DNA of 64,000 nucleotides from an uncultured bacterium (GTDB taxonomy: Bacteria > Armatimonadota > UBA5829). How positions within the stretch are numbered: the first letter of the stretch is position 1; each line of letters starts with the position of its first letter. The notes beneath the pieces are model-generated. The model had not been told where the DNA came from. It did not search any database and saw only the letters and a program-made list of their open reading frames with translations. The position numbers and the translations under genes were made by a program. The stretch covers positions 10,672 through 74,671 of the forward strand of contig CAZFYZ010000001.1 of the NCBI GenBank assembly GCA_964523735.1, written 5' to 3'. Of this stretch, positions 6,201-52,596 are shown one piece after another.

Positions 6201-8869
6201 GGGAAACCGAGGCTTACGTAGGCCTCGATCAGCGCCTCTGTGCCTGCAAGTTCGCGTCCCAGCGGATAGATCGCGCTCGTGCCTCCCGCGATCTCGCTCA
6301 CGACTCGCGTGTAGTACTCCTGCTGGAGGCTCTTGAACAGCGCCTGCATCTGCTGCTCAACCGCGGCTTTTCTTGCAGCGTCGGGTTCATGCATGCCGCC
6401 GGCCAGGATTGCGTCCAGCGCCCTCTGGCGAAGATTCTGGTTGCTGGTCCAGAAGGAGTAGACATAGTAGAGGTAACTGTCCCAGACATACGGGGCGGGA
6501 TTCGGGTATGCGTAGTCACCTTTGAGGACGATGTAGTCGCTGCCAATAGCGTGAACTCCGCCGTATATCTGGACCTTGCCGTTGGATGGATCTTCGTGCC
6601 ATAGCGTAACCTCTGCGGCGGGAATGGCCATCAGCATATAGGCACCAAAGTTCGGTATGACAAGCTTGTCGTACCAGTAAGGCCGCACTCGTGCGTGCAG
6701 TGTCCCGAGGTTCAGTAGGTGTTGGTTATTGAAGAGCTGGAACTGACTGAACTTGGCCAGATGTGAGGCGGTCAGATCAAACGAGGAGAGAGAGTTGACG
6801 CCGTCCTGCCTATAGGCAGTCATGCTTATGTTGGTCGGCCAGTCGGGAACCACTTGCGACGGACTGCCGTACATATCGAGCGACTCCTTCAGTACACCGT
6901 CCTTCGGAGTGAGCTGTGTCGTCTCCCGAAGCACCGTTGTCTGCAGGTCGTCGATCGCGGTCGCCATCTGCGCGGTCACGTCACCATGGTGCTGCATGAG
7001 CGCGGTCAGCAGAGGCCGGTTGCCGAAGTTCTGCAGCGCCGACTTCACGCGCTGCCCTTCCTGCGTGATCAGCGCTAGTCGGTTCGGGTCCTTGTAGGCG
7101 TAGAACCACGGGTTCTCCCTGGCAAGCTGTGCATACGCGTTTGCGGCGGTAGCCCAAGCAGTCGGGTTCGCGACACGAGTGGAGTACAACGGGTTTGTCG
7201 TCAAGCCCTGGTCGCGGGGGAACAGCCTCAGGTTGTTGACGCTGTAGCCGTAGTTGGCTTGGTTGAGCATGTTCGCGTCGGCTGCGTTAATGAATGTGAG
7301 TTCGCTCGTGCCGGTTGTAGGCCCGGCCAACAAGCTCGAGAGGACCTCGGTTGTGGCGCGAGTGTAGATAGTGGTCTCGGCAGTGACGAATGACACATCA
7401 CCCTCATAGGGCAGGTCCCAGCCGTTGTTGTTCTGCTTGTAGGCTAGCGAGCCGTCAATTGCCTGCACGAAGCTCTGTTGGTAGCCGTCCGCGAGAGCTC
7501 CGAAGAGGTTCTGGTTGAGCCGGTCGAGGTCGGACTGCAGTTCGAGCACCGAGCTTCTGATCGCGGCAAGGCTGACCTGGACATCGCCAAGCTGGTAGAG
7601 AATCTGGTCCAGACCCCTGTCGATCGTGTCGAACCGGCTGTTGAGCTGCTCGTGCATCGCGAGCATCTGCTGGCGCATTTGGACCACCTGATCCAGCAGG
7701 TCCTCGAGCTGCTGCGTGGTCTGATCTGCCCCAAACAGCCCGGCTGATACACCGAAGATGTCGGACAACCCGAGAATGCCATGGCTGATCGTCATGGGAC
7801 TTGGCTGGGCGAAGGCCAACGCTACTCTGCTTATCCCACTAGCGACCTTTGTGACATCAGCGGCATACTTGGAGATCGTCGCGGCCGTGCTCGCCTGCGA
7901 GTCGTCGCCGGCCACGATCATCACCGCAAGCTCCGCGTGGACGCGGCTGCGGATACCGTTCAGGGCCTCGACGTCCTCGGCTCTTTGAGCACGGGCGGCG
8001 TTGAGCAACTCGATGTTGGGGTTGACGAAGGAAGCCAGGTAGTTCGACTTCTGAATAGCGTCCACCTGAACCGCCGTTTGGACCAGCCCCGGCATGGAAT
8101 CAACCACTGCCCCAGCGTGCGTGATCGCGTCCTGGCAAGTGGGCTGAAAACCCTGCGCCCTCAGCGCCTCAAGCGCCGCATAGTCGGCAGGCAGCGCCGC
8201 CATGGCCGCCGCAACATCGGGATAATGCTCGGCCATAGTGGCTGGCAGCGGGAAAGGGTCGAACCCCTGCGAACTGAGGTAGTGTAGGAACGCGACCCGC
8301 ACGATCGCCTTCGATTCCCCATTGGCATCGAGTCCCAGGAAACCGTAAGTCAGCACCACGTTCAGTTCGGCGCTGTTCGCCAGGTCGAACCCCTGCTCGT
8401 TCACGAAACTCATCAACTTCGTGAGCTGAGTAGCGAGTTCATCCTTGTGCAGGCCGAGCATCTGGAGTATCTCGAGGCCGAAATCCGCCCGCATGCCCGG
8501 CTGCTTAGCCGAGCGAACGCCGAACCTCATCTCCGTCAGGAAGTCGATGGGGATCATCAGGTCGGGGTCATTCGGATTCATCGAACGAATGTGCGCGTCG
8601 AACGCGTTGGCGAAGGCGTCCAGCTGCTCGAGTGTGGCGTTGGGGTTCTCGGCCGCAGCCTGCAAAATGGAGGCGAGCACGCCGACAACCCGATGGTTCG
8701 GCGAGCGCGCCAGGTCTGTCATCACTACCTGACTCGCAGAAATCGCCTGCTTAAGCCTGAGGTAATCGGCCTGGCTTTGTACCTGGAGATCAGGCCGGGG
8801 CAGATCGGCCAGGGCCGAAGTGACCAGAATGAGGGCCGGAATGGCCAGAAGTGCAGAGTGCCTAAACAT
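3275..8869 (-). CDS. Giant secreted multidomain protein (~1865 aa): helical N-terminal region, cadherin/VCBS-like domain, Ig-like domain, parallel beta-helix, and a very long Gly-rich (GGxGGxG) low-complexity C-terminal region
   Basis: The ORF track gives 3275..9112. The likely start is the Met at 8869 (MFRHSALLAIPALILVTSALA, a signal peptide) preceded by GGAGG. The cadherin/VCBS-like motif is VLANDAPEP...GGTVIFSADGEGGFSYQPPAGFTGTDSFQYVARG. The Ig-like (I-set-like) segment is ...GRYDVLMTPAGGAPFASSTAALTVI. The beta-helix-like repeats read ...TVAISANAITQETHIEGFSIFSANATTAGGSSYGVLISNGTGNVVLSCNAIAAG. The C-terminal ~600 aa are dominated by G/A/N/Q/S with runs of GGGGGGGGGG. Confidence 0.75.
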   Translation of the reverse strand: MFRHSALLAIPALILVTSALADLPRPDLQVQSQADYLRLKQAISASQVVMTDLARSPNHRVVGVLASILQAAAENPNATLEQLDAFANAFDAHIRSMNPNDPDLMIPIDFLTEMRFGVRSAKQPGMRADFGLEILQMLGLHKDELATQLTKLMSFVNEQGFDLANSAELNVVLTYGFLGLDANGESKAIVRVAFLHYLSSQGFDPFPLPATMAEHYPDVAAAMAALPADYAALEALRAQGFQPTCQDAITHAGAVVDSMPGLVQTAVQVDAIQKSNYLASFVNPNIELLNAARAQRAEDVEALNGIRSRVHAELAVMIVAGDDSQASTAATISKYAADVTKVASGISRVALAFAQPSPMTISHGILGLSDIFGVSAGLFGADQTTQQLEDLLDQVVQMRQQMLAMHEQLNSRFDTIDRGLDQILYQLGDVQVSLAAIRSSVLELQSDLDRLNQNLFGALADGYQQSFVQAIDGSLAYKQNNNGWDLPYEGDVSFVTAETTIYTRATTEVLSSLLAGPTTGTSELTFINAADANMLNQANYGYSVNNLRLFPRDQGLTTNPLYSTRVANPTAWATAANAYAQLARENPWFYAYKDPNRLALITQEGQRVKSALQNFGNRPLLTALMQHHGDVTAQMATAIDDLQTTVLRETTQLTPKDGVLKESLDMYGSPSQVVPDWPTNISMTAYRQDGVNSLSSFDLTASHLAKFSQFQLFNNQHLLNLGTLHARVRPYWYDKLVIPNFGAYMLMAIPAAEVTLWHEDPSNGKVQIYGGVHAIGSDYIVLKGDYAYPNPAPYVWDSYLYYVYSFWTSNQNLRQRALDAILAGGMHEPDAARKAAVEQQMQALFKSLQQEYYTRVVSEIAGGTSAIYPLGRELAGTEALIEAYVSLGFPQSMDRNQLLRGLLKGDGIGLGKDGVSRVYQDAATAIPDAAPDLIGLMAERASALQTALDTAAAPDSTQSTESHPYIKYALAALADIQPGRLQLANDDHYIAAGGALAVASSAGVLANDAPEPTISPEHVGYEVVAVFDQSSQPGGQRTTAQGGTVIFSADGEGGFSYQPPAGFTGTDSFQYVARGNYEGETQNPVFSNIATAYIQVGPAVVITAQPQPFTAPVGGTAVFRIGLSGDCAIQWRKNGIPLQESGRVSGTQLDTLVISQVQIDDAGRYDVLMTPAGGAPFASSTAALTVIAPTVSGGKLLGDGSDVDIPDGIVSRIWPGFFYIGSPDRSSGIRVQGTFQTITEGSAVRIRGAMRTNDAGERYIEPTSVIPMGSGIVRPLLMAPRSIGGADLNYDTDSGRGQKGIKGGVGLNNIGLLVKVVGHVSYVDPEGEFIDIWDGPVTQPEGLPADPLGGAGIRVMLPTMPVPKAGTQVTATGISSMYLHESESLPVVLANSTSDISVMTGDGTPDRPDCLFEDTNGDGIDGDISRAVFVAPSPWGSDSNSGTLDRPVATIERGIELAAAASPRKDVYVAAGAYSPTGGTLAMQSGVSIYGLYDGTARWGRSLSNITSIIGGTVAISANAITQETHIEGFSIFSANATTAGGSSYGVLISNGTGNVVLSCNAIAAGSGAVGADGVAGPAGQAGGQGGPGGNGNCDGTPPGYGGAYGNSACGMFGGYGGQGGVAGEHNGQAGGYGAGGAYGGSGGAWGNPGKRGGDGQNGADGADGVNGAQASAIGTVADGMYLPPTSGNGSTGGNGGGGGGGGGGGAQSGFFVIDGSGNGGGGGGGGGAAGAGGSGGQGGGGSFAVFIANAVATVDSNQLTSGSGGIGGAGGAGGAGGNGGSRGYGAALDTDEIGAGGNGGVGGKGGNGGHGSGGPGGPSICIFAFNSPITVGANEFIFAPFAGGGGSLGNTGLPGISLEVYNQ

Positions 8870-9283
8870 CTCTCTCCTCCGTACGCACGTTTGCGACACG
8901 GAGAGGTGAGATACATCCCCGTGTCTCGCAATCGGAAGCTTTCGTCGCTTATCCTGGCACGTTCTGGAGGGTTCACGCTGAAGCGTGCTGGACTTCGTGC
9001 GGCGAGTATTACGGGGTCTCCAACTTCTGAGGCCAACTGGAGTGTAGCCCAGGAATGCCTGGCTGTCAAGGGGTGGGGAGGAGGCTGAGTACTTGGCGTC
9101 CCAGCATTCCACAAGCCAGAGGTCCCTTGCAGCCAGCGACCACGAATCCGGCAGGCCCCTGCGGGAACTCTGGCTTGTCCAGCACTGCTAGCTTGTTGTC
9201 AGCATCGTTCCCGCAGTATGGCTTGGGACTGCAGATCGCTCATCCGTGTGTTGGCCCTGGGGAACATGCAGGCGAAGAGGCTG

Positions 9284-15727: not shown

Positions 15728-16981
15728 ATGACAAGAACGCAGTTCCGTCTCGCGATCCTGCTTGTGATCGCCCTGTCTGTCCTCGTCGCTCCCGCCTACT
15801 CGCAGACATTCGCTCAATGGATGCAGACGGCCGAGCAGGCCAAGGCTCGCGGGGATATGCCGGGCATGGAAAAGGCCATCCTCAAGGCTCACAGAGTGTC
15901 GCGAGGCAACGAAGGCTCGTGGCGCGGGCTTGCCTGGGCGCAGGCTCGGCAGGGAAAGCATGAGGAGTCACTCAAGAGCGCTCGGGAGAACGTGCGGCGC
16001 AACGGCGAGTGCGGCTGGTCGCTGCAGCAGCTTGCGGATTCGCTGATCTCGACCAATGACTACGCAGAGGCCCGCACCGTCCTGGCGAAAGCCGACGCTC
16101 TGCCTCAGAGCCAGATCGGTGGCGCTCAAGGAGCACTGGATTACACGAAGAACCGGCTCAAGGCATACTCCGGTGAGCGCGTCTATTCGCTGAGATGGAA
16201 GGTCCCCGCGAACGCGTTTGGCGGCAAGACATTCGAGCTGCTTATGCCCGCGATGAACACCCCGCGCCAGACGTGCACCTACACCGTGAGCGGCGCGCAG
16301 TCTTACGAACCCATCAAGGACGGCTACAGAGACCTGGTAAGGATCACTCAGCAGCCGGGTGAGCCCTGCTGGATCAACGCCACGCTCACACTCAAGGGGT
16401 TTGGAATCGGACGGAAGAAGCTTGCCGAGCTGACCTCGCAGGACTACCCCGCCGAGGCAAAGGGCTGCCTGGGCCCGTTCTATCACGGCCCATACTTCGA
16501 CCCCGCCATCCCCGAGTGCCAGGAAGCCGCGCAGAGACTGAAAGGCGCGACGCCTTATGAGACCGTGCAGAACATCCTCAACTGGATGGGCGACAACTTC
16601 ACCTATGATGGCAATGCGCAACCTGACGGCCTCAAGGGATTCCTGATCGGCAAGAAGGGCGTCTGCCACCACTGGTGCAGCGGATTCACAGCACTGTGCC
16701 GCGCGGCTGGCGTGCCTGCAGTCGTTGCGCACGGCGTTGCTCTGCCGGGTGAGAAGCGATTCAAGGAGGCCGAGGGAAGCCACGGTTGGGCCGAGGTCTA
16801 CTTCGTCGGAGCCGGCTGGGTTCCTGTTGATCCGCTTGGGCGTGAGACGCTGGCTATGTTCGGCGGCAAGAGCTACATGACCACCGACTGCGCCAACTTT
16901 ACTGAGAACGACGACCACTTCAAGTACAACTCGATCCAAGGCATACGCTACAGCGGTCGCATCGTAAGCGACACGCCGTAG
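15728..16981 (+). CDS. Secreted transglutaminase-like cysteine protease family protein with N-terminal TPR-like region
   Basis: The ORF track gives 15575..16981. The likely start is the Met at 15728 (MTRTQFRLAILLVIALSVLVAPAYSQ, a signal peptide) preceded by GGAGG. The transglutaminase-core motifs are GVCHHWCSGFTALCRAAGVPAVV and SHGWAEVYFVGAGWVPVDP (Cys-His-Asp triad context). Confidence 0.7.
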   Translation: MTRTQFRLAILLVIALSVLVAPAYSQTFAQWMQTAEQAKARGDMPGMEKAILKAHRVSRGNEGSWRGLAWAQARQGKHEESLKSARENVRRNGECGWSLQQLADSLISTNDYAEARTVLAKADALPQSQIGGAQGALDYTKNRLKAYSGERVYSLRWKVPANAFGGKTFELLMPAMNTPRQTCTYTVSGAQSYEPIKDGYRDLVRITQQPGEPCWINATLTLKGFGIGRKKLAELTSQDYPAEAKGCLGPFYHGPYFDPAIPECQEAAQRLKGATPYETVQNILNWMGDNFTYDGNAQPDGLKGFLIGKKGVCHHWCSGFTALCRAAGVPAVVAHGVALPGEKRFKEAEGSHGWAEVYFVGAGWVPVDPLGRETLAMFGGKSYMTTDCANFTENDDHFKYNSIQGIRYSGRIVSDTP

Positions 16982-17325
16982 TCTTGGAGTGCGATAAATC
17001 GCCACTTTCGTGGGCCGCGCCAGGTTTATGTGTGCGCGGCCCTTGCTCTGCCGGGCGCACGATGGCGGCATCGGTTGTCTGCGCGCTGATCGTGGTTCCC
17101 ACGAATTCTCTCTTTTCACTGCCGGAGAAGCTCTCGATGATTGACTCGGCACAACCGAAGAAGTGGGCATGCCATAGATAAGCCCCGGGTGTACAGCAAT
17201 GCGCCCATTCTGCCCAGTGGCCTGAATGCCGGATATGGGCATGTGCCATCCGTCAGGAACACCCCCCATGTACTGTGGCATGACCAGCCTCTTACGGCAT
17301 GCAAAGATGGGCATGCCATAATAAA

Positions 17326-17427: not shown

Positions 17428-17985
17428 TCAGAAGTCGAGGGTTGAATCAAGCTTTCGGCCAGCGGGGGGATAGCCGGCTCTGTACACAGCCCGGTATAGA
17501 GCTGAGATGGCGTCGACCACTGCACCGAGGCATCTCTCGACATCCGCGATTGAGACCGACTGATCTTCCCTCGCATGCGTAAGCGCGTTCCGCAGGTGCA
17601 GTCCTGCTTTGAGGTCAGACCACCAACCTGCGTCCTTGTCTACAGGCTTGCCAGAGTACTTGCGCACCAAGAACTCAAGCCTGTCCTCAAGCCTACGCAT
17701 CTGCAGCTTGTTTGTGAGTACGAACCTCCCCTGCTGCAGTGCGAGCTCCCTCTCAGTCAGCAACGATTGCTCGGTTTTGTCCAGGTGACCATCCGTCACG
17801 AAATCGTCGGCAACTGCGTTAACATGGGCCTCAAGTGCACAGCAGGCCTGCAGCAGGGCGGCGTGAAGGTAGGCAAGGCGACCGTCCGCCGTCGTCTCGG
17901 CCTTGGCCTTCTCAAGGAACCGTTTGGCCTCCTCAAGGAGCAGACGTGCGAAGTCGTCAAGCGTCTTCATCGTAACGGTCGACAT
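17428..17985 (-). CDS. HEPN-motif protein (predicted RNase-type effector), 185 aa
   Basis: The protein is all-alpha by composition. An Rx4-6H motif (LRNALTHARE; R-N-A-L-T-H) lies in the C-terminal third, as in HEPN domains. Its start overlaps the 3' end of the upstream DGQHR gene by 29 nt, so the two are translationally coupled. I assign the HEPN fold from the motif alone, with moderate confidence. Confidence 0.5.
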   Translation of the reverse strand: MSTVTMKTLDDFARLLLEEAKRFLEKAKAETTADGRLAYLHAALLQACCALEAHVNAVADDFVTDGHLDKTEQSLLTERELALQQGRFVLTNKLQMRRLEDRLEFLVRKYSGKPVDKDAGWWSDLKAGLHLRNALTHAREDQSVSIADVERCLGAVVDAISALYRAVYRAGYPPAGRKLDSTLDF

Positions 17986-19240
17986 TCTGGGACTTAAGCA
18001 CCTCCAGGTTCGCCTGCTTTGCGTGGTACTTCTTTATGGCCAGATCTATGAGTCCCTTAGTTATGCCTTCGCCACCTTCGGCCTGCAAGTAGAAGAGTTC
18101 AACGAGACGGCCGCGCTCCTTCGCATCCGTTCTGTACCCAAGCCCTCTGTAGTTGTCCTGATCCGTCTTGTGCCTGCCCTTTGCCAGAGCAGCCGCATTG
18201 AGCGGATCGCGAGGCCCCTTGTTGGCAAGGCCGAAATGCCGCTCCAGGCGTTTGGAATTGGAGTGGAGGACTCCGGCGACATAGGCCCACGCCGAAAGAA
18301 CCGCATAGTTGAGTGCTTTGTGAGCCGAGTCACTGTTGGGCCCCTCTTTCCCTTTTCCGAGGCTGAATGCCGCTCGCTGGACCTGCACAAGCCTAGCGAA
18401 CTCACCCCCGGCCCTCTGTAGACGCGGATCTGTCCACAAGCGAGGCTTGTTGCGCTTGAGTTCCTCCCACTCGACTGCCTCTGTGCCTGAGCTGCAGATT
18501 GATGGAGTGGTTTCTGTGCGATCGAAGTCTCTAGCCGCTATATTGACGCCGCTGTAGTAGTTGAGGATAAATGTACGTGCGGCACGCACGGTGACAGGGT
18601 CTCCGCGCTGGCGCTTATCAGCGAAGTCCTGACCGTGCTGGAGTAGCCCAACCTCCTGGCACCATTGCCGAAGTTCAGGGCCGAAAACTGTCTCCTGCAT
18701 CCTGTCGTAGAGGTCGGGGGAGACCGCTATATTCGTGTTTGATATAAGCTGCACGTCAAGCCTTTGCTCCGTGTCTAGGTCGAAGTACACTTTTATCCCG
18801 TGGAGCTCGTCAACGTGTTCTCTTACCGCAAGCTTGATCGCTTCAAACCTGTGCTGGCCACCGATTACCTTCAGCGGACGCTCGGAGTTGTAGTCAAGTA
18901 CGAATTCACACACGATATTGCTGAACGTTCTCCCCGCCGCTGCATCCTTCTTCATGGCCTTGAATGCAGAATGGTCGAGCAGTATTTCCCGGTTGGCTCT
19001 GTACTCCAGCTGTTCCTCGGGGTCGAGCGGCACGTCGGTCGTGGCGGAGGCGATCAGCTTACTGCCGAAGACGTGGCACTCGACATAAACGGCTTTGGTG
19101 CAGGAGTCAGTCAGTAGATGCAAACGCTCACGCTCTATCGGCTCAAACTGGGCCACGAACTGCTCGATAAGGGGACGCAGTTTGGCAACGCGTTCTTCGG
19201 ACAGAGGCGTAGCAGCAACGAAGTCAGAGAGAGCACCCAT
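17957..19240 (-). CDS. ParB/Srx-fold DGQHR-type domain protein (DndB / DUF262-like), 427 aa
   Basis: The ORF track gives 17957..19273 with a GTG start. The likely start is the ATG at 19240 (MGALSDFVAATPLSEERVAKL...) with AGGAGG 8 nt upstream. The motif KVIGGQHRFEAIKLAV matches the DGQHR (DndB) / DGQQR (DUF262, GmrSD N-domain) signature of the ParB/sulfiredoxin superfamily. The C-terminal ~250 aa are unassigned. Confidence 0.6.
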   Translation of the reverse strand: MGALSDFVAATPLSEERVAKLRPLIEQFVAQFEPIERERLHLLTDSCTKAVYVECHVFGSKLIASATTDVPLDPEEQLEYRANREILLDHSAFKAMKKDAAAGRTFSNIVCEFVLDYNSERPLKVIGGQHRFEAIKLAVREHVDELHGIKVYFDLDTEQRLDVQLISNTNIAVSPDLYDRMQETVFGPELRQWCQEVGLLQHGQDFADKRQRGDPVTVRAARTFILNYYSGVNIAARDFDRTETTPSICSSGTEAVEWEELKRNKPRLWTDPRLQRAGGEFARLVQVQRAAFSLGKGKEGPNSDSAHKALNYAVLSAWAYVAGVLHSNSKRLERHFGLANKGPRDPLNAAALAKGRHKTDQDNYRGLGYRTDAKERGRLVELFYLQAEGGEGITKGLIDLAIKKYHAKQANLEVLKSQNVDRYDEDA

Positions 19241-19457
19241 ACCGAAGACCTCCTGTGAACGACAGCCGGACACTCAGTCCAACAGCAGAGATTATACGCG
19301 ACGCACTTACCACCGGTCAAATCGCTCACCATCATGGCCAGACCGGGCACTCCCTCCGAACCCCCTCCCCTTCATTGTGGCATGGCGCACGGCCGGTCGA
19401 CCGCTGTAGTGACATTCAGAGAAGGGGCGAGGTCTCCGGCTACGATGCCGAAGCAAT

Positions 19458-20651
19458 CTATCCGCGCGTGGCGGCGTATCTCGCACGCGTGCGGCGGCTG
19501 ACCCAGCTTCGGGCTGTGAGCGGGGGTAGGGCGTGGCGGCGGTGGATGGGGTCTGTCTCAAGTTCAGGCTCCACTGGCTGGCCTCTGAATCGACGCGACG
19601 AGTCCTGGTTGGATGCCCGGGCAAACGGGCGCATTACAGTCACGATCAGCAGGTATCCTGCCAGGAGGATCGCAGCGAAGGCGAGGTTTGAGGAGAAGCC
19701 ATCATCAGCGTCAGGCAGCGGAGCCAGATAAGCAGCGACGTACGACGGGCAGAACTTCGTTACCCCAGGAGACAGGAGAGCGCACTGACTGTCATCGGAT
19801 GACACGGCCTGGGATATCGAGAGTATCGCGGCTTCGTAGGCACGGTCCTTCGACGTGTAGGGTACGTTGCAGGGAGTCTCCAGCAGGAATGCGGCGTGAC
19901 CAAGGGTCGTGTACCTGCGGTGGAACAGCCTCGGGTTTCCATCAGGCCTGCACTTGTGCGCCAGAAGCCCCGATCGGCTCTCGACCTTCTTCGCCAGCAG
20001 CATCATCGCATGAGCCCGACTGTCCGAGATGGTTGGCGCGACCTCGATCTCATTGCCCGCGGTGTTGGTGGGGCCGGTCCATTCGTGGGCATCGATCAGC
20101 ACGTGAGGCCTCCATGTCCGAATCGTCCGATCGACGAAGACGGCTTCCGGAGCCTTCAGAGTCGCCCAATCCCGGTTGATATCGATCCCCTGCGCGTTTA
20201 GCCGCTGCTTTTCGGCAAACCCGTCGGGGTTGGCCACCGGTACGACAATGAACACACACTTCTTCAGCAGCTCAGGCTCCGATCCCGACGCGAGCTTTCC
20301 GCACAGCGACAGCACCGACTCAACCGGATTGCCCTCATCTCCGTGCTGCCCGGCCACGATCATAACTCGGGTCTTTCCCTCGGATCCGATCGACAGGTCG
20401 GAGATCACAAACGCTGGTATCGCCCGACCCTCGCCCGATTTGCCAAAGGCGACCAGACGGGCATTTGCAGAGTCGGACAGCGCCCGCACGCGAAGCATGG
20501 CCGCATCGTAGGGGTTAGGGGTTGGGGGGTGGGAGTTGGGGGACGCGTGGCTAGCGGCGCGAGCCAATGCCAGGAGTTGCAGCGAGGATAGAATGAGCAC
20601 GAGGGCCTTCCCTAGCCCCCAAGACCCAGCTCCTAACCCCTTCTGCTTCAT
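19458..20651 (-). CDS. Secreted zinc carboxypeptidase, peptidase M14 family (succinylglutamate desuccinylase/aspartoacylase-like fold)
   Basis: The ORF track gives 19458..20786. The likely start is the ATG at 20651 (MKQKGLGAGSWGLGKALVLILSSLQLLALARAA, a signal peptide), which overlaps the TGA of the upstream flagellar ORF (ATGA). The M14 motifs are VMIVAGQHGDEGNPVE (HxxE zinc ligands) and HVLIDAHEW. Confidence 0.7.
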   Translation of the reverse strand: MKQKGLGAGSWGLGKALVLILSSLQLLALARAASHASPNSHPPTPNPYDAAMLRVRALSDSANARLVAFGKSGEGRAIPAFVISDLSIGSEGKTRVMIVAGQHGDEGNPVESVLSLCGKLASGSEPELLKKCVFIVVPVANPDGFAEKQRLNAQGIDINRDWATLKAPEAVFVDRTIRTWRPHVLIDAHEWTGPTNTAGNEIEVAPTISDSRAHAMMLLAKKVESRSGLLAHKCRPDGNPRLFHRRYTTLGHAAFLLETPCNVPYTSKDRAYEAAILSISQAVSSDDSQCALLSPGVTKFCPSYVAAYLAPLPDADDGFSSNLAFAAILLAGYLLIVTVMRPFARASNQDSSRRFRGQPVEPELETDPIHRRHALPPLTARSWVSRRTRARYAATRG

Positions 20652-21181
20652 CTCTGCCGGTCCAGGAACATAGGGGCGTCGTGGGAGCACGCGGGGCCGT
20701 AGGCAGCGTCGAGCCTGCGTCGCTGGCCTGACTCGCGGATCGCCTTTGAGATCGACTCCAGCCGGGTCTTCATGATACTTTCGCACTGCGCCTGACAGGC
20801 AAGAATCCTGTCACCCAGAGCCTGTGCATCGCCGTCAAGCGCGGCGGCAGACCGGGCGAGTACCCCGGCCTCATCACTCTGGCCGGCAAGGGCGTCGAGT
20901 GTCTCAGTCGGGACTGCGGCGCTGACGGAGGCTAGCTGCCTGCACTCGCTCTCTCTTTCCTCAATGAGGCGGCTCACGTCTGCCGTAGGATCAGCGGCAA
21001 GCGTCGAAAGCAATCGCTCGCTGACGCCTGATATCCTGCCCAGAGCGGCGTTGCGATCTTTCAGCAGCGAGGTGTAAGCCCTGAGGGAATCGACTACCTG
21101 TTGCTTTGGCTCGCCAAATGTGCTCAAGCCGCGGCCTCCATCTGTATCTCCTGCTGGATCATCTGATCTGCCTCCGCCCAC
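20648..21181 (-). CDS. Hypothetical protein in FliT position (putative flagellar export chaperone-like); start uncertain
   Basis: It lies immediately downstream of fliS in the fliD-fliS operon, the position FliT occupies in many bacteria. The predicted protein is helical, acidic and Leu/Ala-rich. The ORF as given overlaps fliS by 57 nt, so the true start is probably internal (possibly GTG or TTG). Confidence 0.4.
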   Translation of the reverse strand: MGGGRSDDPAGDTDGGRGLSTFGEPKQQVVDSLRAYTSLLKDRNAALGRISGVSERLLSTLAADPTADVSRLIEERESECRQLASVSAAVPTETLDALAGQSDEAGVLARSAAALDGDAQALGDRILACQAQCESIMKTRLESISKAIRESGQRRRLDAAYGPACSHDAPMFLDRQR

Positions 21182-23693: not shown

Positions 23694-23720
23694 GGCTGGG
23701 CCGGAAATACCGGCCCAGCC
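23694..23720 (-). terminator. Intrinsic terminator candidate after flagellin 1: perfect 11-bp stem GGCTGGGCCGG-aaata-CCGGCCCAGCC
   Basis: Read directly from the sequence. It starts 11 nt downstream of the flagellin stop (TAA at 23731-23733) on the minus strand and is followed by UCUUAUUAG. Confidence 0.6.
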
Positions 23721-23730: not shown

Positions 23731-25167
23731 TTAGCGAAGAAGCGAAAGCAGATTCTGAGGAGCCTGGTTGGCCTGAGCAAGCATCGCAACGCCTGCCTGA
23801 TTCAGAATCTGATACTTGGTGAAGTTCACCATCTCGGCGGCCATGTCCGTGTCGCGAATCGTGGACTCGGAAGCCGCGATGTTCTCCTTGGCTACGGTCA
23901 AGCTGTTGATCGAGGACTCGAAGACGTTCTTCTGAGTCGCACCCAGGTTCGCTCTGACCGTTGAGATATCGGAGATCGCCTGGTCGATGATCTTCAGCGC
24001 GTTCGTGGCTGAGCTGGTCACGTCAACGTTAGCCAGCGTCATCCCTGAGACCGCGCCCGCTCCGAGGCTCATGGTGTCGGTCGAAGCGATGTTGACCGTT
24101 CTCGTCTGATCGGCGTAAGCACCGACCTGGAACTTCAGCGAACCGCTCGCGGTTGTGAACTGAGCGCCGAGGTCAGCTACCGCCGAGGCGGCTGCCGCAG
24201 TCAGAGAGATCGAGTTGCCAAGGCTGTCCTTGAGCTGGGTTCCGGTGCCGGAGGTCCAGCTTGTGTCTGACACGTTTCCACCCAGTCCGCCGGAGTGTGT
24301 GACCGTGGCGGCCACATTCACGCCAGCATCGGAGGCGGCAAGCGCGCCACCCACGTTGAAGCCGGCGCCGTTGGTAACCGAGATTGTCGCCGCGCTGCCA
24401 TACTCGGCGCTAGTGAGCGTGATCGTACCGGTGCCGCCCAAGCCAGCGGTGACACCAGTCGTGTCGGTCTTGGCGTTGATTGCGGCAGCCAGCTGCGTGA
24501 CGGTCATCGTCGCGGTGTAATTGATCTGAACGGTGTTGCCCTTGCCTGTGAGCATGAACGAACCGTCAGTGCCGCCCAGCGCAACTGTGTCATTGGCGCC
24601 GAAGGATTTGCTGAGGATGGTCGCCTTCTCAGCGGCCGTCGTGACGTTGACGCTAACTGTGTCGGAAACGGCAAGCGTGCTGGAGTAGTTCATGTTGGCT
24701 GCCGTCACGGACGAGCCCGTGATGGTGGCCTTGATACCGGCAGAGCCGTCCAGCAGTTTCTTGTTTCCGAACTGGGTCTCGCTGGAGATCTTGTTGATCG
24801 ACGCGAGGGCGTTGGTGATCTGGGACTGGTCAGCGGCGATGGCTGCTGTGTCGTTGGCGCCGGTGTTCGCTGCGTGCACCGCCAGGTCTCTCATAGAACG
24901 CAGAAGGTTGTTGACCTCGTTGAGGGCGCCTTCTGTGGTCTTGACCATGTTGACCGCGTCACCCGCATTCTGAATGGCCTGCTGCAGGCCGCTCACCTGG
25001 GCTCGCAGTTTCTCGGAAATAACAAGTCCTGCCGGGTCATCACCGGCGGAGTTGATCTTGAAACCCGAGGACAAGCGCTCAATGCTCTTGGAAAGAGCGC
25101 TGTCAGTGCCCGCCAGATTGCGGCTTGCTGTCAAAGCAGCAGAGTTGAGGTTGATTCTGAGACTCAT
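23731..25167 (-). CDS. fliC: Flagellin (copy 1), 479 aa
   Basis: The ORF track gives 23731..25209. The real start is the Met at 25167 (MSLRINLNSAALTASRNLAGTDSALSKSIERLSSGFKINSAGDDPAGLVISEKLRAQVSGL...), preceded by GGAGG. The C-terminus ...QILNQAGVAMLAQANQAPQNLLSLLR is the conserved flagellin D0 region. Confidence 0.9.
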   Translation of the reverse strand: MSLRINLNSAALTASRNLAGTDSALSKSIERLSSGFKINSAGDDPAGLVISEKLRAQVSGLQQAIQNAGDAVNMVKTTEGALNEVNNLLRSMRDLAVHAANTGANDTAAIAADQSQITNALASINKISSETQFGNKKLLDGSAGIKATITGSSVTAANMNYSSTLAVSDTVSVNVTTAAEKATILSKSFGANDTVALGGTDGSFMLTGKGNTVQINYTATMTVTQLAAAINAKTDTTGVTAGLGGTGTITLTSAEYGSAATISVTNGAGFNVGGALAASDAGVNVAATVTHSGGLGGNVSDTSWTSGTGTQLKDSLGNSISLTAAAASAVADLGAQFTTASGSLKFQVGAYADQTRTVNIASTDTMSLGAGAVSGMTLANVDVTSSATNALKIIDQAISDISTVRANLGATQKNVFESSINSLTVAKENIAASESTIRDTDMAAEMVNFTKYQILNQAGVAMLAQANQAPQNLLSLLR

Positions 25168-25595
25168 AGCGATTCCTCCCTGAAATGCTATCGCCAATCC
25201 ATGGCGCATCGGCTCTTAGCCGACAAACGTTGGGCGGCTAGTTCTCTACCAGGCTTGCCATCGGCTGCCCCGTAATACTCCGGAAGCCTGGGCCCGCTCA
25301 GCTGACATGGAAACCATGTCCGCAGCGGGCGGACGACCATCCTTGAGCCCGATCCGCTGCCGCCATCCGACGCATTTCAGTAAGGGTACTCCACGTAGAA
25401 GTATCGACCTTGGTGCGGCGGCACTTGAGCTGCTCGCGGAGCCGGGCCAGTTCTGTCGGCCTGAATGGTTCTCAATCTACCATTTGCTTCTTCCATGAGA
25501 GACCGCTCGCAATAACACCAGATTTTCAAAAAAATCACTGCGTGCCATGGGCCATCCGAGTGGCGCCAGTTGGTCGCGCGTCGCCTGCCTCGCCG

Positions 25596-25640
25596 CCACC
25601 AAAAAGGCGGGCGCCGAACTCCAAAGGAGCCCGGCGCCCG
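25596..25640 (-). terminator. Intrinsic terminator after flagellin 2: stem GGGCGCCG...CGGCGCCC followed by CCUUUUUGG on the minus strand
   Basis: Read directly from the sequence. It lies 30-70 nt downstream of the flagellin 2 stop (TAA at 25669-25671). The loop itself contains a small CUCC-UUU-GGAG hairpin. Confidence 0.65.
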
Positions 25641-25668
25641 GTTGAGAATGAGGTCCTGGTTGTTCTGC

Positions 25669-27102
25669 TTATTGAAGGAGTTTGAGCAGAGTCTGGGGTG
25701 TCATATTGGCTTGCGCAAGCATAGAGGTGCCAGCTTGCTGCAGGATCTGGAATCTGGTGAGGTTGACGACCTCGGAAGCCATGTCCGTGTCTCGGATGGT
25801 GGACTCCGACGCCGCGATGTTCTCCTGCGCGATGGTCAAGCTTGTAATGCTCGACTCGAAGACGTTCTTCTGCGTCGCTCCCAGGTTGGCTCTGATGGTG
25901 GTGATGTCCTTGATCGCCTGGTCGAGGATGAGCAGGGCGCTTGTTGGATTGTCTCTAACATCGACATCGGCGAGCGTCTTGCCCGATACCGCACCCGCGC
26001 CCAACTGGTTCGCAGCTGTCGATTGCATGCTGATTTCCCTGGTCTGCCCTGCATAGGCGCCAACCTGGAATACCAGCGATCCTCTGGCGACAGTGAACTG
26101 CTGTCCGAGATCAGCAACAGTCGATCCGGCAGCCGTTGTGAGGGCAATCATGTTGCCGAGGCTATCCATAAGAGTCGTGCCGTAGCCCGACGTCCAGCTG
26201 GCATCGGACACGTTGCCGCCTGTTCCACCGGTATGGGTAACCGTAGCCGCGGCGTTCACGCCCTTCGCGCTTGCCGAGAGCGCGCCGCCAGCGAGGATGT
26301 CTCCACCGCCGGTGATGCTTATCTCGGCATTAGTGCCGTACTCCGCACTCTTGAGTGTAATGACACCCGATCCATTCACTGTGGCCGCTATGCCTGTCGT
26401 CCCCGATTGGCCGTTGATGATGCTAGCCAACTGAGAGACCGTCATGGTTGCGGAATAGGCGATCTGAACCGTGTTGTCGTTGCCTTTCAGGCTGAACGTT
26501 CCCGTGGCGCCAATGGCTGCCGCGTCGTTGGCTCCGAAAGCCTTGGTAAGAACGGTAGCCTGAGCGGCGGCGGTTGTGACATTGACGCTTACTGCGTCTG
26601 TGTCTGCAAGGGTAAGAGCGTAGTTCAGATTCGCCGCCGTGGTCTGGGTGCCGGTGATGGTGGCCATGACCCCGGCCGATCCATCCAGCAGTTTCTTGTT
26701 GCCGAACTGAGTCTCACTGGCGACCTTGTTGATCGAGGCAATCGCGTTGGTAATCTGTGCCTGGTCGGCTGCGATTGCCGCATCATCATTGGCGCCCGTG
26801 TTCGCTGCGTGTACGGCGAGGTCTCTCATGGAACGCAGCAAGCTGCTTACCTCGTTGAGGGCGCCTTCGGTGGTCTTCACCATGTTGACTGCATCGCCGG
26901 CATTCTTGATGGCTTGCTCGAGGCCGCTCACCTGGGCTCGCAGTTTCTCTGAGATTACAAGCCCCGCCGGGTCGTCGGCCGCGCAATTGATCTTGAATCC
27001 AGACGACAGCCGTTCGATCGTCTTGCCGAGGTTCCTATCGGTGCCGGCCAGGGTTCGGTGTGCGGCCAGTGCCGACGTATTCAGGTTGATTCTGAGGCTC
27101 AC
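25669..27102 (-). CDS. fliC: Flagellin (copy 2), 477 aa, GTG start
   Basis: The protein begins MSLRINLNTSALAAHRTLAGTDRNLGKTIERLSSGFKINCAADDPAGLVISEKLRAQVSGLEQAIKNAG. It is paralogous to copy 1 and differs in the central variable region. The start codon is GTG, with AAGGAGGAAAG 8 nt upstream. Confidence 0.9.
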   Translation of the reverse strand: MSLRINLNTSALAAHRTLAGTDRNLGKTIERLSSGFKINCAADDPAGLVISEKLRAQVSGLEQAIKNAGDAVNMVKTTEGALNEVSSLLRSMRDLAVHAANTGANDDAAIAADQAQITNAIASINKVASETQFGNKKLLDGSAGVMATITGTQTTAANLNYALTLADTDAVSVNVTTAAAQATVLTKAFGANDAAAIGATGTFSLKGNDNTVQIAYSATMTVSQLASIINGQSGTTGIAATVNGSGVITLKSAEYGTNAEISITGGGDILAGGALSASAKGVNAAATVTHTGGTGGNVSDASWTSGYGTTLMDSLGNMIALTTAAGSTVADLGQQFTVARGSLVFQVGAYAGQTREISMQSTAANQLGAGAVSGKTLADVDVRDNPTSALLILDQAIKDITTIRANLGATQKNVFESSITSLTIAQENIAASESTIRDTDMASEVVNLTRFQILQQAGTSMLAQANMTPQTLLKLLQ

Positions 27103-27529
27103 TTTGGTCTTTCCTCCTTGAACGATTGCTCGTTGTCCTGTCGCGACTGACTTCCTGTCAGCTCAAGGACGTTTACGGCGCCTGCCGGAGCAGGCTTCTC
27201 CTACCTACTACATCGACTACGTGCGGACGCGGCATTAGCATCTTTTTTGGGAATTTCAGGGGTGCCAGGAGGCCTAGCTGATCCACGCTCTACACCTTGC
27301 TTGAGTCCGTCTGCGCTGAGTAGCGGCAGCATATCGAAGCGCCGCGCCTGGGCATTCGGTAGGGCACGGCTGCCAATGCTGTGCGGGGTGGTGGGAGTTG
27401 GCCAGCGTGGATGGTTCTAGATGAGACGTGATGAGCTGGTCCGGACGTGACAGAGGGTGGTACCGTACTTAGGTATCAGACGGCACAGAAGGCAGGAAGA
27501 TGGCCAGGCTAGCCTCTTGCGGATGGATT

Positions 27530-27754
27530 CTAGGCTTCTCCAAGGGCTTTGGAGACCGCATCCACTGAGGCCTCGCCGGCCGCTCTTACGTTTTCTGCCC
27601 TAATCTGGTCCAAGAGTTCCTTGCGGTGCACCGGTATCGACTTAGGCGCGTTGATGCCCAGCCGCACCTGGTCACCCCTTACTTCGATGACCAGAAGCTC
27701 GATGTTGTCGTTGATGATGATCGACTGCCCGACCTTCCTGGCTAGAACTAACAT
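27530..27754 (-). CDS. csrA: Carbon storage regulator CsrA
   Basis: The sequence MLVLARKVGQSIIINDNIELLVIEVRGDQVRLGINAPKSIPVHRKEL is unmistakable for CsrA. It sits between fliW and the flagellin gene, as in the Bacillus-type FliW-CsrA-Hag module. Confidence 0.9.
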   Translation of the reverse strand: MLVLARKVGQSIIINDNIELLVIEVRGDQVRLGINAPKSIPVHRKELLDQIRAENVRAAGEASVDAVSKALGEA

Positions 27755-27784
27755 CTTGAGTGCTTCCTTTCACTCGTGCGGCCC

Positions 27785-28264
27785 CTAGGCCGCCTTGACG
27801 ACTGCCTTCTCCCCGGCATTCTCGCTGTTCTCGCTTTCCATATTTACCACAAGTGGGTGCTTTACCGAATAGCGATTGTCCTGAAGCACCACCTGCAGGC
27901 CGATCAGCTCCTCCGAGTTGATCACGACAGGCGCTGCAAGATTGATCGATAGTTCGCGCCCGCCCTCGCCGACAGTAACGATAGTCAGCACAATGGCATC
28001 GTCCGCGTTCTCCAGGTGCAGCATCTCTGCTTCGGCATCCGGCACCTCGATCTCGTAGTCAGCGAAGAATCTCGATGGATCGACGACCACGAACGCCAGG
28101 CCCGGCTCATCGATCGACTGAAGCCATCTCAGGCTTGTGTCCGGACGGTGCTGCATCAGGCAGTAGTCCTTGTAGTCCTCGAAGCCGATCGGACCTTTCA
28201 GCATCTTGATGATCGAGGAGTCGTCGATTTCGAGTACACCGAATCTTGTCGTTTCTACTTTCAT
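27785..28264 (-). CDS. fliW: Flagellar assembly factor FliW
   Basis: The ORF track gives 27785..28285. The likely start is the Met at 28264 (MKVETTRFGVLEIDDSSIIKMLKGPIGFEDYKDYCLMQHRPDTSLRWLQSID...), with GGAGG 6-10 nt upstream. The protein is FliW-family, about 160 aa. Confidence 0.85.
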   Translation of the reverse strand: MKVETTRFGVLEIDDSSIIKMLKGPIGFEDYKDYCLMQHRPDTSLRWLQSIDEPGLAFVVVDPSRFFADYEIEVPDAEAEMLHLENADDAIVLTIVTVGEGGRELSINLAAPVVINSEELIGLQVVLQDNRYSVKHPLVVNMESENSENAGEKAVVKAA

Positions 28265-31888: not shown

Positions 31889-32998
31889 CTAGATGATCTC
31901 CAACTGCGCCTGCAGTGCTCCCGCCTGCTTCACCGCCTGAAGGATCGCTATCAGGTCTCTGGGTGTAACGTGCAGAGCATTCAGCGCCCTCACCAGCTCA
32001 CCGACGGTCGAGCCGCCGGGTATCTCCGTCAACGGCGCTTTCTCCTCGGTCGCGTTCACGGTCTTCTGGTTCGTGGCGACGGTCGTTCCGCCGCTCATCG
32101 GCTGAGGCTGGCTCAGCAGCCATTCGTCGGTGACTTCGACCGTGAGCGCTCCATGCGAGACGGCCACCGGCGTGATCCGCGCCTGCCCGCCGATGATCAC
32201 AGTGCCCGTCCGCTCGTTGACTATGACCTTGGCGACCTGATCGGTTGTGACCTGAGCGCTCTCGATCAGCGAGATGAGTGACACGAGGTCGTTCTTGTAG
32301 TCGGACGGCACGTTGACTGCGAGCACGTTTCCATCCACGGCCGAGGCGTAGTGCCCGCCGAGGACTTCGTTGATCGATTTCGCAGCGCGCGACGCGGTGG
32401 TGAAGTCGCTCTCGTTCAGGGTCACGTTGACGGAGTCGTTAACCGTCAGCTCAGTCTTCGTGTCACGCTCGACGAGTGCGCCACCGGGTATACGCCCGGC
32501 CGTCGGATGGTTCTTCGTCGTGGAGGAACCGCCGCCCGAGGCACTGAAGCCTCCGATCGAGACGGGTCCCTGGGCTACTGCATACACCGATCCGTTTGCC
32601 GCTCGAAGCTGTGTTTGCAGCAGCGTGCCTCCCTGCAAGCTTCGCGCATCGCCTAGAGAAGATACGACCACGTCTATGGTTGTGCCCTGTCGGGCAAAGG
32701 CAGGGAGCGTCGCAGTGACCATTACGGCCGCCACGTTCTTTACCTTCATCTTGTCTGCGGCGATGGTGAGCCCATACGTGTTCAGCATGTTGGCTAACGA
32801 TTGGGTGGTGAACTTGGTCTGCTGGCTATCGCCGCTTCCATCAAGCCCGATTACCAATCCATAGCCAATGAGCTGATTCGCACGCACCCCCTCGATCGAT
32901 GCGATGTCCTTGACGCGCACGCTCTGTGCCAGAGCGGCGGTTCCTCCAACGCTGATCGTCAGGATCACTATCAATGCTGTTGTGATTGCAGCTTTCAT
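31889..32998 (-). CDS. flgI: Flagellar P-ring protein FlgI
   Basis: A signal peptide is followed by ...VRVKDIASIEGVRANQLIGYGLVIGLDGSGD..., the FlgI signature. The C-terminus is ...LNALHVTPRDLIAILQAVKQAGALQAQLEII. Confidence 0.9.
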   Translation of the reverse strand: MKAAITTALIVILTISVGGTAALAQSVRVKDIASIEGVRANQLIGYGLVIGLDGSGDSQQTKFTTQSLANMLNTYGLTIAADKMKVKNVAAVMVTATLPAFARQGTTIDVVVSSLGDARSLQGGTLLQTQLRAANGSVYAVAQGPVSIGGFSASGGGSSTTKNHPTAGRIPGGALVERDTKTELTVNDSVNVTLNESDFTTASRAAKSINEVLGGHYASAVDGNVLAVNVPSDYKNDLVSLISLIESAQVTTDQVAKVIVNERTGTVIIGGQARITPVAVSHGALTVEVTDEWLLSQPQPMSGGTTVATNQKTVNATEEKAPLTEIPGGSTVGELVRALNALHVTPRDLIAILQAVKQAGALQAQLEII

Positions 32999-33067: not shown

Positions 33068-33673
33068 CTAGAAAAGTATCCTCAATATCCTCGTAACCAG
33101 CCCTTCCTTCTGCCTGCTGCCGACCGGACCGCTGCCGGTGTGGGTGATCCTGGCATCAGCTATCGCTGTCGAAAGGACTGTGTTATCCGGGCTGACGTCC
33201 TGAGGACGCACGGTCCCGGTGAGCTTGATCTCTTCCTTCTCGCTGTTGGTCTGGACGAAGCGAGTGCCCTCGATCTCGAAGTTGCCGTTGTCGGTGACCT
33301 TCTTTACCGTGACCGTCATCCTTGCAGTGAACGTGCTGGCTCTGGTTGTGGAGCCCTGGGCCTTCAGCGAGTCCCCAGCTGAGTACTCGAAACCCGGTAT
33401 GTTCTTGATCAGCGGCCCGACTCCGGGGCTGACCTCGGTCTGAGTGTCCTTCTTAGCGTTCGTGGAGGCGGTGCTCGTGGATGAGGCCGACTCGACTATC
33501 ACAACCGTAAGAACGTCTCCGGCCTTGACCGCCTTCTTGTCGGCGTACATTGGGGTCGGTTCGTCCTTCGGGAACAGCGACTCAGCGCCCACCGCCGAGG
33601 CGATCACAGTTATCAGAATGCAAGCTATCGTCCAGCGTGTATACATGTTGATCTCCATCACCTGGTCAGGCAT
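33068..33673 (-). CDS. flgH: Flagellar L-ring protein FlgH
   Basis: The FlgH family is indicated by ...KAVKAGDVLTVVIVESASSTSTASTNAKKDTQ...FEIEGTRFVQTNSEKEEIKLTGTVRPQDVSPDNTVLSTAIADARI. The likely true start is the internal Met at 33658 (MEINMYTRW...), whose ATG overlaps the flgA stop (TGATG). Confidence 0.8.
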   Translation of the reverse strand: MPDQVMEINMYTRWTIACILITVIASAVGAESLFPKDEPTPMYADKKAVKAGDVLTVVIVESASSTSTASTNAKKDTQTEVSPGVGPLIKNIPGFEYSAGDSLKAQGSTTRASTFTARMTVTVKKVTDNGNFEIEGTRFVQTNSEKEEIKLTGTVRPQDVSPDNTVLSTAIADARITHTGSGPVGSRQKEGLVTRILRILF

Positions 33674-51091: not shown

Positions 51092-51093
51092 CT

Positions 51094-51723
51094 GTGGCAA
51101 AGCGGTTGATTGATGTAGTCGCCTCGGGGCTTCTCCTCCTGCTGATTGCGCCGCTGCTTCTGGCGATCGCAGTCGCGGTGGCAGTCACCATGGGCTGGCC
51201 GGTCATATTCACGCAGGTTCGCCCTGGCAAGAACGAGCGGCCCTTCCGCATCTACAAGTTCAGAACCATGGGCAGCGCTGCTCTGCCGGACGGAACGCCT
51301 CTTCCTGACAGCCAGAGGCTCAACCCGCTGGGCAGGTTCCTCCGCGCAACCAGCTTGGACGAACTGCCGGAACTCTTCAATGTCCTGATGGGCCATATGA
51401 GCTTGGTGGGGCCCAGGCCGCTTCTTATGGCCTATCTGCCCTACTACACTGCGCGCGAGCGTCTGCGTCACAGTGTCAGGCCTGGCATAACGGGCTGGGC
51501 CCAGGTGACAGGCCGCAACGAGATCGGCTGGGCGGATCGGCTGGCCAAGGATGTGTGGTACGTGGAGAACTGGAGTCTCGGTCTCGACCTCCGGGTTCTG
51601 ATCGAAACCGTGCGGGTTGTTCTCCGGAGAAGCGGTGTTGTGGTGGACCCGGAATCGCGAATGCTCAGCCTGGACCAGGAGCGGGCGCTTGCCGGGGACG
51701 AGGCCGGAGGGAGGCCACGATGA
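51094..51723 (+). CDS. Initiating sugar-phosphate transferase, PglC/WbaP C-terminal-domain type (bacterial sugar transferase family)
   Basis: It starts at a GTG 3 nt after the preceding stop. The sequence MAKRLIDVVASGLLLLLIAPLLLAIAVAVAVTMGWPVIFTQVRPGKNERPFRIYKFRTM...LDELPELFNVLMGHMSLVGPRPLL shows the hallmark motifs of small PglC-like phosphoglycosyl transferases. Confidence 0.8.
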   Translation: MAKRLIDVVASGLLLLLIAPLLLAIAVAVAVTMGWPVIFTQVRPGKNERPFRIYKFRTMGSAALPDGTPLPDSQRLNPLGRFLRATSLDELPELFNVLMGHMSLVGPRPLLMAYLPYYTARERLRHSVRPGITGWAQVTGRNEIGWADRLAKDVWYVENWSLGLDLRVLIETVRVVLRRSGVVVDPESRMLSLDQERALAGDEAGGRPR

Positions 51724-52499: not shown

Positions 52500-52596
52500 C
52501 GCGTATTCGGCACTGGCATCCGGGTATAAGGCCCTTAGCTGGCAAGGCACCCCGCCTGTATGCCCGTCTGCCAGCGCAAGTGGAGGCTGAAGAACA

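Follow-up and report, generated by a model that had tools for sequence, protein, structure and literature searches.

A stretch of 64,000 nucleotides (nt) from an uncultured Armatimonadota genome (assembly GCA_964523735.1, contig CAZFYZ010000001.1, positions 10,672 to 74,671 of the forward strand; the whole stretch is called the window) carries fliW and csrA followed by two flagellin genes, and it probably encodes a FliW-CsrA-flagellin homeostasis module, a partner switch of the Bacillus/Campylobacter type. In the leader of the downstream flagellin gene, the comparison with orthologous leaders shows a conserved, covarying predicted hairpin with GGA in its loop at a fixed distance from the Shine-Dalgarno (SD) sequence; the hairpin in the upstream leader is partly supported, and more weakly than that of the downstream gene.

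In the mechanism that we propose, each flagellin gene would be transcribed as a sigma-28 unit of its own and carry a long leader; by bridging the GGA in the hairpin loop to that in the SD sequence CA-N-GGAGGA, a CsrA dimer would keep the 30S subunit from binding. Flagellin export would free FliW, which would bind the C-terminal region of CsrA around N55 so that the mRNA is released, and cytoplasmic flagellin would re-sequester FliW. We infer from sequence the binding of CsrA to the leaders, the translational repression, and the binding of FliW to CsrA and to flagellin.

FliW and CsrA of the module

The fliW-csrA-flagellin order and the identities of the genes, proposed in an earlier note made from the nucleotide sequence alone, were confirmed by Pfam and NCBIfam. 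The genes of the module are as follows.

27785-28264, minus strand: fliW, 159 amino acids (aa) from a conserved Met (PF02623, E 2e-37, 128 bits against a cut-off of 25)
27530-27754, minus strand: csrA, 74 aa (PF02599, E 1.5e-23; TIGR00202, 87 bits against a cut-off of 70.1)
25669-27102, minus strand: upstream flagellin gene (copy 2 of the earlier note), 477 aa, GTG start (Flagellin_N, Flagellin_C, Flagellin_IN)
23731-25167, minus strand: downstream flagellin gene (copy 1), 478 aa, ATG start (Pfam)

FliW barely passes the NCBIfam model NF009793 (130.5 bits against a cut-off of 130), and its matches in the PDB are 2AJ7 and 5DMB_A. Its start is M8 of the mechanically called open reading frame (ORF), which begins at 28285; M8 is invariant in an alignment of 41 sequences and coincides with the end coordinate 28264 first given for the gene. 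The best PDB match of CsrA is 5DMB_D, a CsrA chain solved together with FliW, aligned through residue 67, and both the C-terminal extension and N55 are present. CsrA N55 and FliW Q124 are described as a critical, invariant contact pair needed for binding (bioRxiv 10.1101/2020.07.02.184341). N55 is retained in 97 of 101 fliW-csrA loci and the equivalent of Q124 in all 101, the window being included in both counts; Q131, N115, A118 and F65 of the window FliW correspond to the CsrA-contacting Q124, N108, A111 and F58 of B. subtilis. FliW contacts flagellin through the helices D1-N and D1-C (PMC6070490), and both window flagellins have complete Flagellin_N and Flagellin_C domains by Pfam.

One pair of positions in these proteins counts against a switch of this type. 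In B. subtilis, disruption of the salt bridge between CsrA D41 and FliW K123 abolished inhibition and kept binding (bioRxiv 10.1101/2020.07.02.184341), and the window proteins have P41 (codon 41 of csrA, 27632-27634) and L130 (27896-27898) at these positions. The genes could accordingly be present without a Bacillus-like switch, FliW being a chaperone only, or CsrA being bound without inhibition. We regard this as distinctly unlikely: the bridge is absent from most fliW-csrA loci sampled across phyla (the pair is P/M, P/A or S/K in most sampled phyla and D/E-K in 5 of about 100 loci), the N55/Q124 contact is universal at the frequencies given above, and FliW of C. jejuni does antagonise CsrA (PMC4894983). 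Because the pair varies in most phyla sampled, the D41-K123 bridge is a lineage detail and no criterion for the family.

Promoters, leaders and GGA hairpins of the flagellin genes

Both flagellin genes are preceded by a sigma-28-type promoter and a predicted leader rich in GGA. The elements are listed below, with folds given as minimum free energy (MFE) or centroid structures.

27210-27238, minus strand: sigma-28-type promoter of the upstream flagellin gene, CTAAT-N16-GTCGATGT; the same CTAA[AT]-N16-GTCGATA[ACG] in orthologs
27103-27202, minus strand: predicted 5' leader of the upstream flagellin gene, about 100 nt with 5 GGA, its start placed from the promoter
27147-27161, minus strand: distal hairpin CUGAC-AGGAA-GUCAG with GGA at 27155-27153 (MFE and centroid folds)
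27112-27117, minus strand: SD sequence GGAGGA of the upstream flagellin gene, context UUCAAGGAGGAA, then GUG
25608-25640, minus strand: intrinsic terminator after the upstream flagellin gene, a 15-bp stem then a T-run
25401-25429, minus strand: sigma-28-type promoter of the downstream flagellin gene, CTCAA-N16-GTCGATAC
25168-25393, minus strand: predicted 5' leader of the downstream flagellin gene, about 226 nt with 9 GGA, its start placed from the promoter
25210-25222, minus strand: hairpin HP1, CGGC-UAAGA-GCCG (MFE and centroid folds), which includes one GCCGAT site
25192-25206, minus strand: hairpin HP2, CGCCA-UGGAU-UGGCG, with GGA at 25200-25198 in the pentaloop (covariance model R1)
25174-25180, minus strand: SD sequence GGGAGGA of the downstream flagellin gene, context UUCAGGGAGGAA, then AUG

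For comparison, 80 loci were taken from genome contigs through a FliW alignment and 80 from metagenome contigs through an alignment of flagellin N-termini, and together they gave 89 distinct Armatimonadota-type flagellin leaders (compared loci carry L-numbers). A scan of the genome contigs with a single FliW protein found no relative; the alignment-based scan succeeded.

The earlier note could not identify sigma-28-type -10 elements with confidence, and conservation among orthologs now places the promoters at 27238-27210 and 25429-25401. The element CTAA[AT]-N16-GTCGATA[ACG] stands upstream of nearly all compared flagellin genes, with the consensus found in more than 20 orthologous leaders. 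The upstream promoter has counterparts at a comparable position in L005, L001, L006, L008, L088-L091, L095, L102 and L125, among others, and the leaders of second-copy orthologs carry CTAAAG-N15/16-GTCGATA[GCA] about 230-250 nt 5' of the start (for example in L095, L087, L089, L098, L102, L110, L085, L083, L091 and L106). Both window genes thus have the conserved TAAA-N15/16-GCCGATAA-like element that marks the sigma-28 class. The promoter consensus suggests transcription starts near 27202 and 25393, and the predicted leader lengths of about 100 and 226 nt follow from the promoter positions. Because a strong terminator (25640-25608) lies between the genes, each flagellin gene probably forms its own transcription unit. 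In keeping with sigma-28-type promoters, flgM is present in the window; a fliA gene was not found within it.

Other promoter candidates were rejected. GCCGAT, which occurs twice upstream of the downstream gene and had been flagged as a possible sigma-28 element, has no TAAA-like -35 at the right spacing and is not conserved as a promoter; one of the two sites is the 3' arm of the conserved hairpin HP1. A sigma-54 reading, made by eye, of TGGCAC at the upstream gene and CTGGTA-N5-TAGC at the downstream gene was dropped, the -12 element being mismatched and nothing being conserved.

In both window leaders GGA occurs at two or more sites, one of which overlaps the SD sequence, and the four RNA strings quoted at the outset, two hairpins and two SD sequences, are present exactly where they had been placed. 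GGA is 2-3 times as dense in the predicted leaders as on the strand overall; the upstream leader has 5 per 100 nt, compared with 1.7 for this strand of the window, with GGA at 27201-27199, 27155-27153 and 27138-27136 and two in the SD sequence. Most leaders also have a GGA no more than about 12 nt from the -10 element; in the window these GGA are at 27201-27199 and 25392-25390. A hairpin with GGA in its loop is present in 65 of the 89 leaders, where shuffles give 15.8 +/- 3.3. The same loose criterion, applied to sequences upstream of other flagellar genes of these loci, is satisfied in 47 of 168. The SD context CA-N-GGAGGA occurs in essentially every leader and its positions are invariant in the alignment. 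Since N varies, the CA is not explained by pairing with the anti-SD sequence, and the context agrees with the CANGGANG-type CsrA/RsmE site given in PMC4894983.

The downstream gene of the window belongs to a proximal class of leaders, in which a GGA-loop hairpin ends 9-14 nt before the SD sequence. This layout occurs in 49 of the 89 leaders, against 2.1 +/- 1.3 in dinucleotide shuffles and 10.5 +/- 2.8 in shuffles with GGA positions fixed. The stems use at least 12 different complementary sequences (among them CGCCA/UGGCG, CCGCCU/AGGCGG, CCCGAA/UUCGGG, GGCCA/UGGCC, GUCGAC/GUCGAC, GGGGUA/UACCCC, CAAACA/UGUUUG and AGCCCU/AGGGCU). Within the loop, only GGA is invariant, and most loops read CCA-N-GGA. 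The spacing from GGA to GGA peaks at 21-22 nt among the leaders and is 21 nt in the window, where HP2 lies 12 nt 5' of the SD sequence. The covariance model R1 has one strong hit in the window (25171-25212; E 4e-11, 43.4 bits); its other hit, at the upstream flagellin gene, is weak and driven by the SD sequence. Across 700 kb of related loci it scores 47 times, each time directly next to a flagellin start. When the rows, chosen beforehand for stems of 4 bp or more, were split by loop geometry into their registers, covariation was 0.251 versus 0.095 in one comparison and 0.806 versus 0.208 in the other, with none of 500 shuffles reaching these values and a sharp peak at slide 0. No hit to Rfam was found in the window at the gathering threshold, and at E <= 1 the region 25100-27560 gave only chance-level matches, none inside a leader.

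Folding of the leaders, suggested earlier as a check, bore out the distal hairpin of the upstream gene in both MFE and centroid structures; HP2 appears in the MFE and centroid structures of the full predicted leader and of an 83-nt local fold, and is absent when an arbitrary 181-nt context is folded. HP2 alone has -8.0 kcal/mol (z = -2.5), and the fold of the full downstream leader (z = -2.4) holds HP1 and HP2. Hairpins equivalent to HP1 occur in orthologs with other stems (GGCC/GGCC, GGGCC/GGCCC). The 83-nt fold places UGGAU and AGGGA pentaloops side by side; the AGGGA-loop hairpin, which would sequester the SD sequence, was rejected as a conserved feature, being at chance level in orthologs beyond 2-3 bp.

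The loop GGAs might instead be SD-like standby or enhancer sites that raise the translation of a very abundant protein, as the high expression of flagellin and the resemblance of AAGGA to part of an SD sequence could suggest. In all 47 cases the loop GGA is followed by A, U or C; because the next base is never G, the match to the anti-SD sequence is never extended and the proximal loop does not look like a second SD sequence. The flanks, moreover, fit CA-N-GGA and not GGAGG, and we consider the standby reading highly improbable.

The upstream gene of the window belongs to a distal class, with a short AGGAA-loop hairpin 28-40 nt before the SD sequence and a second hairpin between them. In the window, CUGAC (27161-27157) and GUCAG (27151-27147) enclose AGGAA (27156-27152), and GUCCU (27170-27166) pairs with AGGAC (27139-27135) in a lower stem. 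Whether the loop GGA would be kept in orthologous leaders had been named as a decisive point. It is kept in the layout of the downstream gene, as counted above; the hairpin of the upstream gene recurs, but its GGA is often lost. Any regulatory role of this less conserved hairpin of the upstream paralog is putative.

Several observations weigh against the partner-switch reading of the leaders. About 10 of 25 orthologs in the distal class (about 40%) have the loop AUGAA, AAGAA or ACGAA, where GGA is replaced by UGA, AGA or CGA, and the close relative L095 has no GGA at all upstream of its SD sequence; in C. jejuni, a change from GGA to UGA lowered CsrA binding 4-10 fold (PMC4894983). Folding z-scores are modest (-1.3 to -2.5), GGAGGA is also simply a strong SD sequence, and the loose hairpin criterion is satisfied by 28% of the control upstream regions. 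The transcription starts rest on promoter consensus, and the compared leaders are phylogenetically related. The stem pre-selection bears on the register-split covariation, and unselected MAFFT and covariance-model alignments give a weaker, moderate pair signal in which slide -1 scores like slide 0; this weaker signal is attributed to the mixing of two loop registers 1 nt apart.

Some of these points would also suit an explanation in which the leader hairpins are generic features of the mRNA (stabilisers, folding scaffolds, processing sites or sites of another protein), the loop GGA is incidental, and CsrA acts solely at the SD sequence or elsewhere in the cell; it applies chiefly to the upstream paralog, whose distal hairpin is kept even where the loop has no GGA. 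Single hairpins of this sort do arise by chance: about 7% of shuffled leaders contain a GGA enclosed by a stem of 5 bp or more, so each hairpin taken singly is weak evidence. The blocks CUUCCGGAGUA and GGGCG...CGCCC of the downstream leader are likewise conserved without obvious CsrA logic. The proximal class, however, keeps GGA as the only invariant loop part with stems free to vary, its distance from loop to SD sequence is fixed at the range that CsrA can bridge, and the motif is found solely in leaders of flagellin genes that neighbour fliW-csrA. On balance, generic hairpins are an unlikely explanation.

Two further conserved features were observed in the leaders. In the downstream leader, the region 25231-25295 (minus strand), 5' of HP1, consists of CUUCCGGAGUA, GGGCG, about 35 variable nt and CGCCC, and the same blocks occur in L081-L110 and L014. 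Of the 47 proximal-class leaders, 20 have a GGGC...GCCC pair, compared with 5.7 +/- 2.2 for shuffled ones, and RNAalifold pairs the GGGCG and CGCCC blocks, which show no covariation because both are invariant. In a more distant clade with a single flagellin gene (L112-L160), a conserved GAAAGGAGG(Y)AUG-like element lies about 150-200 nt before the flagellin start, near the predicted 5' end of the leader. The short distance between its AUG and the SD-like sequence does not suit a normal upstream ORF, and the element may be another CsrA site.

Comparison with known FliW-CsrA systems

The Hag-FliW-CsrA partner switch of B. subtilis was reportedly described by Yakhnin in 2007 and by Mukherjee in 2011 and 2016, and PMC7652899 reviews it. 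We take its gene order to be flgM-flgN-flgK-flgL-fliW-csrA-flagellin-fliD-fliS, which is also the order in the window. The C-terminal extension and N55 of B. subtilis CsrA and Q124 of its FliW have their equivalents in the window proteins. The hag leader has two CsrA sites, one overlapping the SD sequence (PMC7652899), and the window leaders are alike in layout: the two candidate sites per leader that had been proposed, a GGA-loop hairpin and a GGA in the SD sequence, are arranged as in B. subtilis hag and C. jejuni flaA. Unlike B. subtilis, the window represents a diderm, with flgA-flgH-flgI-flgJ fused upstream in the gene row, its flagellin genes are two paralogs with separate promoters and leaders, and flaG and fliT are not recognisable. 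Its leaders are also longer, at the predicted lengths, and hold more GGA, and the D41-K123 pair is replaced by P and L.

C. jejuni, like the window, combines a diderm envelope with a sigma-28 flagellin gene; fliW and csrA are presumably not adjacent to flaA there. Its flaA 5' untranslated region (UTR) (Dugar 2016) has two ANGGA hairpin loops, the second covering the ribosome-binding site, with a GGA spacing of 21 nt and compensatory changes among relatives (PMC4894983). This is the spacing of the downstream leader of the window, and the optimum for a CsrA dimer is given as 18 nt (PMC4894983). The C. jejuni leader is just 45 nt long, whereas those of the window are longer, and, unlike in flaA, conservation of the SD hairpin of the window among orthologs stops at 2-3 bp. 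The high-affinity CsrA/RsmE site is CANGGANG in an apical loop (Schubert 2007, Duss 2014, cited in PMC4894983). The SD context of the window type, U-CA-N-GGA-G-G-A, in essentially all leaders and the CCA-N-GGA of most proximal loops are alike to it; in contrast to it, the loops here are penta- to heptaloops, and the loop of the upstream paralog, ACAGGAAG, has no N spacer.

The occurrence of the module in a diderm had been put forward as its distinguishing feature. A diderm envelope is indeed indicated, because the L-ring protein FlgH and the P-ring protein FlgI are encoded, but this is not novel: FliW-CsrA control of flagellin has been shown experimentally in Campylobacter (PMC4894983), and the system has been studied or reported in Helicobacter, Borrelia, Geobacter and Leptospira. 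PMC13443453, citing Mukherjee 2011, views FliW-CsrA as an ancestral trait of flagellated bacteria, and an occurrence in Armatimonadota fits such an origin. No paper linking FliW to Armatimonadota or Armatimonadetes was found in the literature searched. The FliW-CsrA flagellin checkpoint would here be extended, by sequence evidence only, to an uncultured diderm phylum; the understanding of the system itself is unchanged. The leader motif, with its coordinates and covariance model, could seed an RNA family and aid the annotation of flagellin 5' UTRs in metagenome-assembled genomes (MAGs). The promoter assignment of both flagellin genes is corrected, and the natural loop variants with GGA or with UGA, AGA or CGA form a set usable for probing the requirements of CsrA.

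The flagellin paralogs and the surrounding genes

The two window flagellins are 73% identical. The mechanical ORF of the downstream gene reaches 25209, and the protein start MSLRINLN lies at 25167; an exact-protein lookup with the upstream flagellin returned no record. The GTG start proposed for the upstream gene (27100-27102) was borne out and is common to the orthologous csrA-proximal paralogs: 11 first paralogs start with GTG (L001, L005, L088, L090, L091, L095, L102, L106, L125, L147 and the window), and none of 14 second paralogs does. Two anciently separated paralogs with different leader classes, the GTG start limited to the first paralog and the extra conserved leader blocks may be regarded as modest lineage-specific features.

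A more far-reaching, tentative and rather unlikely reading is that the paralogs are wired differently to CsrA and that this difference is maintained across the lineage. The downstream gene would then always keep a high-affinity dual-site leader, lying within a larger conserved structured leader (CUUCCGGAGUA, GGGCG...CGCCC, HP1, HP2) that, like the flaA mRNA of C. jejuni, could serve CsrA as a target and at the same time titrate it. Regulation of the upstream paralog, with its conserved GTG start and dispensable loop GGA, would be weak or indirect. Such wiring could give a filament in which two flagellins are ordered or controlled in their ratio.

The module lies in a row of flagellar genes on the minus strand, identified from the ORF list with Pfam and NCBIfam: flgF, flgG, flgA, flgH, flgI, a gene for an FlgJ-like, rod-binding protein between flgI and flgM, flgM, flgN, flgK and flgL, continuing with fliW, csrA, the GTG-start flagellin gene, the ATG-start flagellin gene, fliD and fliS.

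33068-33673, minus strand: flgH, L-ring (Pfam/NCBIfam)
31889-32998, minus strand: flgI, P-ring (Pfam/NCBIfam)
23694-23720, minus strand: terminator-like hairpin after the downstream flagellin gene, GGCTGGGCCGG-tattt-CCGGCCCAGCC, then a T-rich tail, read directly

The last of these was missed by the terminator scan because its T-run is too short. In the spacer between csrA and the flagellin gene, upstream of the promoter, no DNA conservation with relatives was found, and thus there is no evidence there for a hidden gene or small RNA.

The nearest relatives of the window FliW come from Armatimonadota MAGs, the top match being 95% identical and on a 1.9-kb contig, and the second 74% identical. 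The fliW-csrA-flagellin order is found again in relatives. In L001, csrA and the flagellin gene are about 4.5 kb apart, and in the close Armatimonadota loci L002, L003, L007, L010, L011 and L016 csrA stands without a flagellin gene within the available 2-6 kb. The linkage of csrA and flagellin is thus common and not fixed.

Neither flaG nor fliT was recognisable in the window. Directly 3' of fliS, and overlapping its end as listed, is an ORF of 177 aa (20648-21181, minus strand) with no Pfam or NCBIfam match. It could encode a lineage-specific flagellar protein at the position of Bacillus fliT, which we take to be directly after fliS. The sizeable ORFs 15968-17314, 17428-17985 and 17957-19273 (minus strand) have no Pfam or NCBIfam match either, and a 1945-aa ORF (3275-9112, minus strand) has Ig-like domains as its sole matches. 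On the plus strand, 43908-63544 holds a polysaccharide biosynthesis cluster with a flippase, several GT1, GT2 and GT4 glycosyltransferases, a Wzy-like polymerase, a DegT aminotransferase, a Wzz/tyrosine-kinase-like protein and a Polysacc_synt_2 dehydratase.

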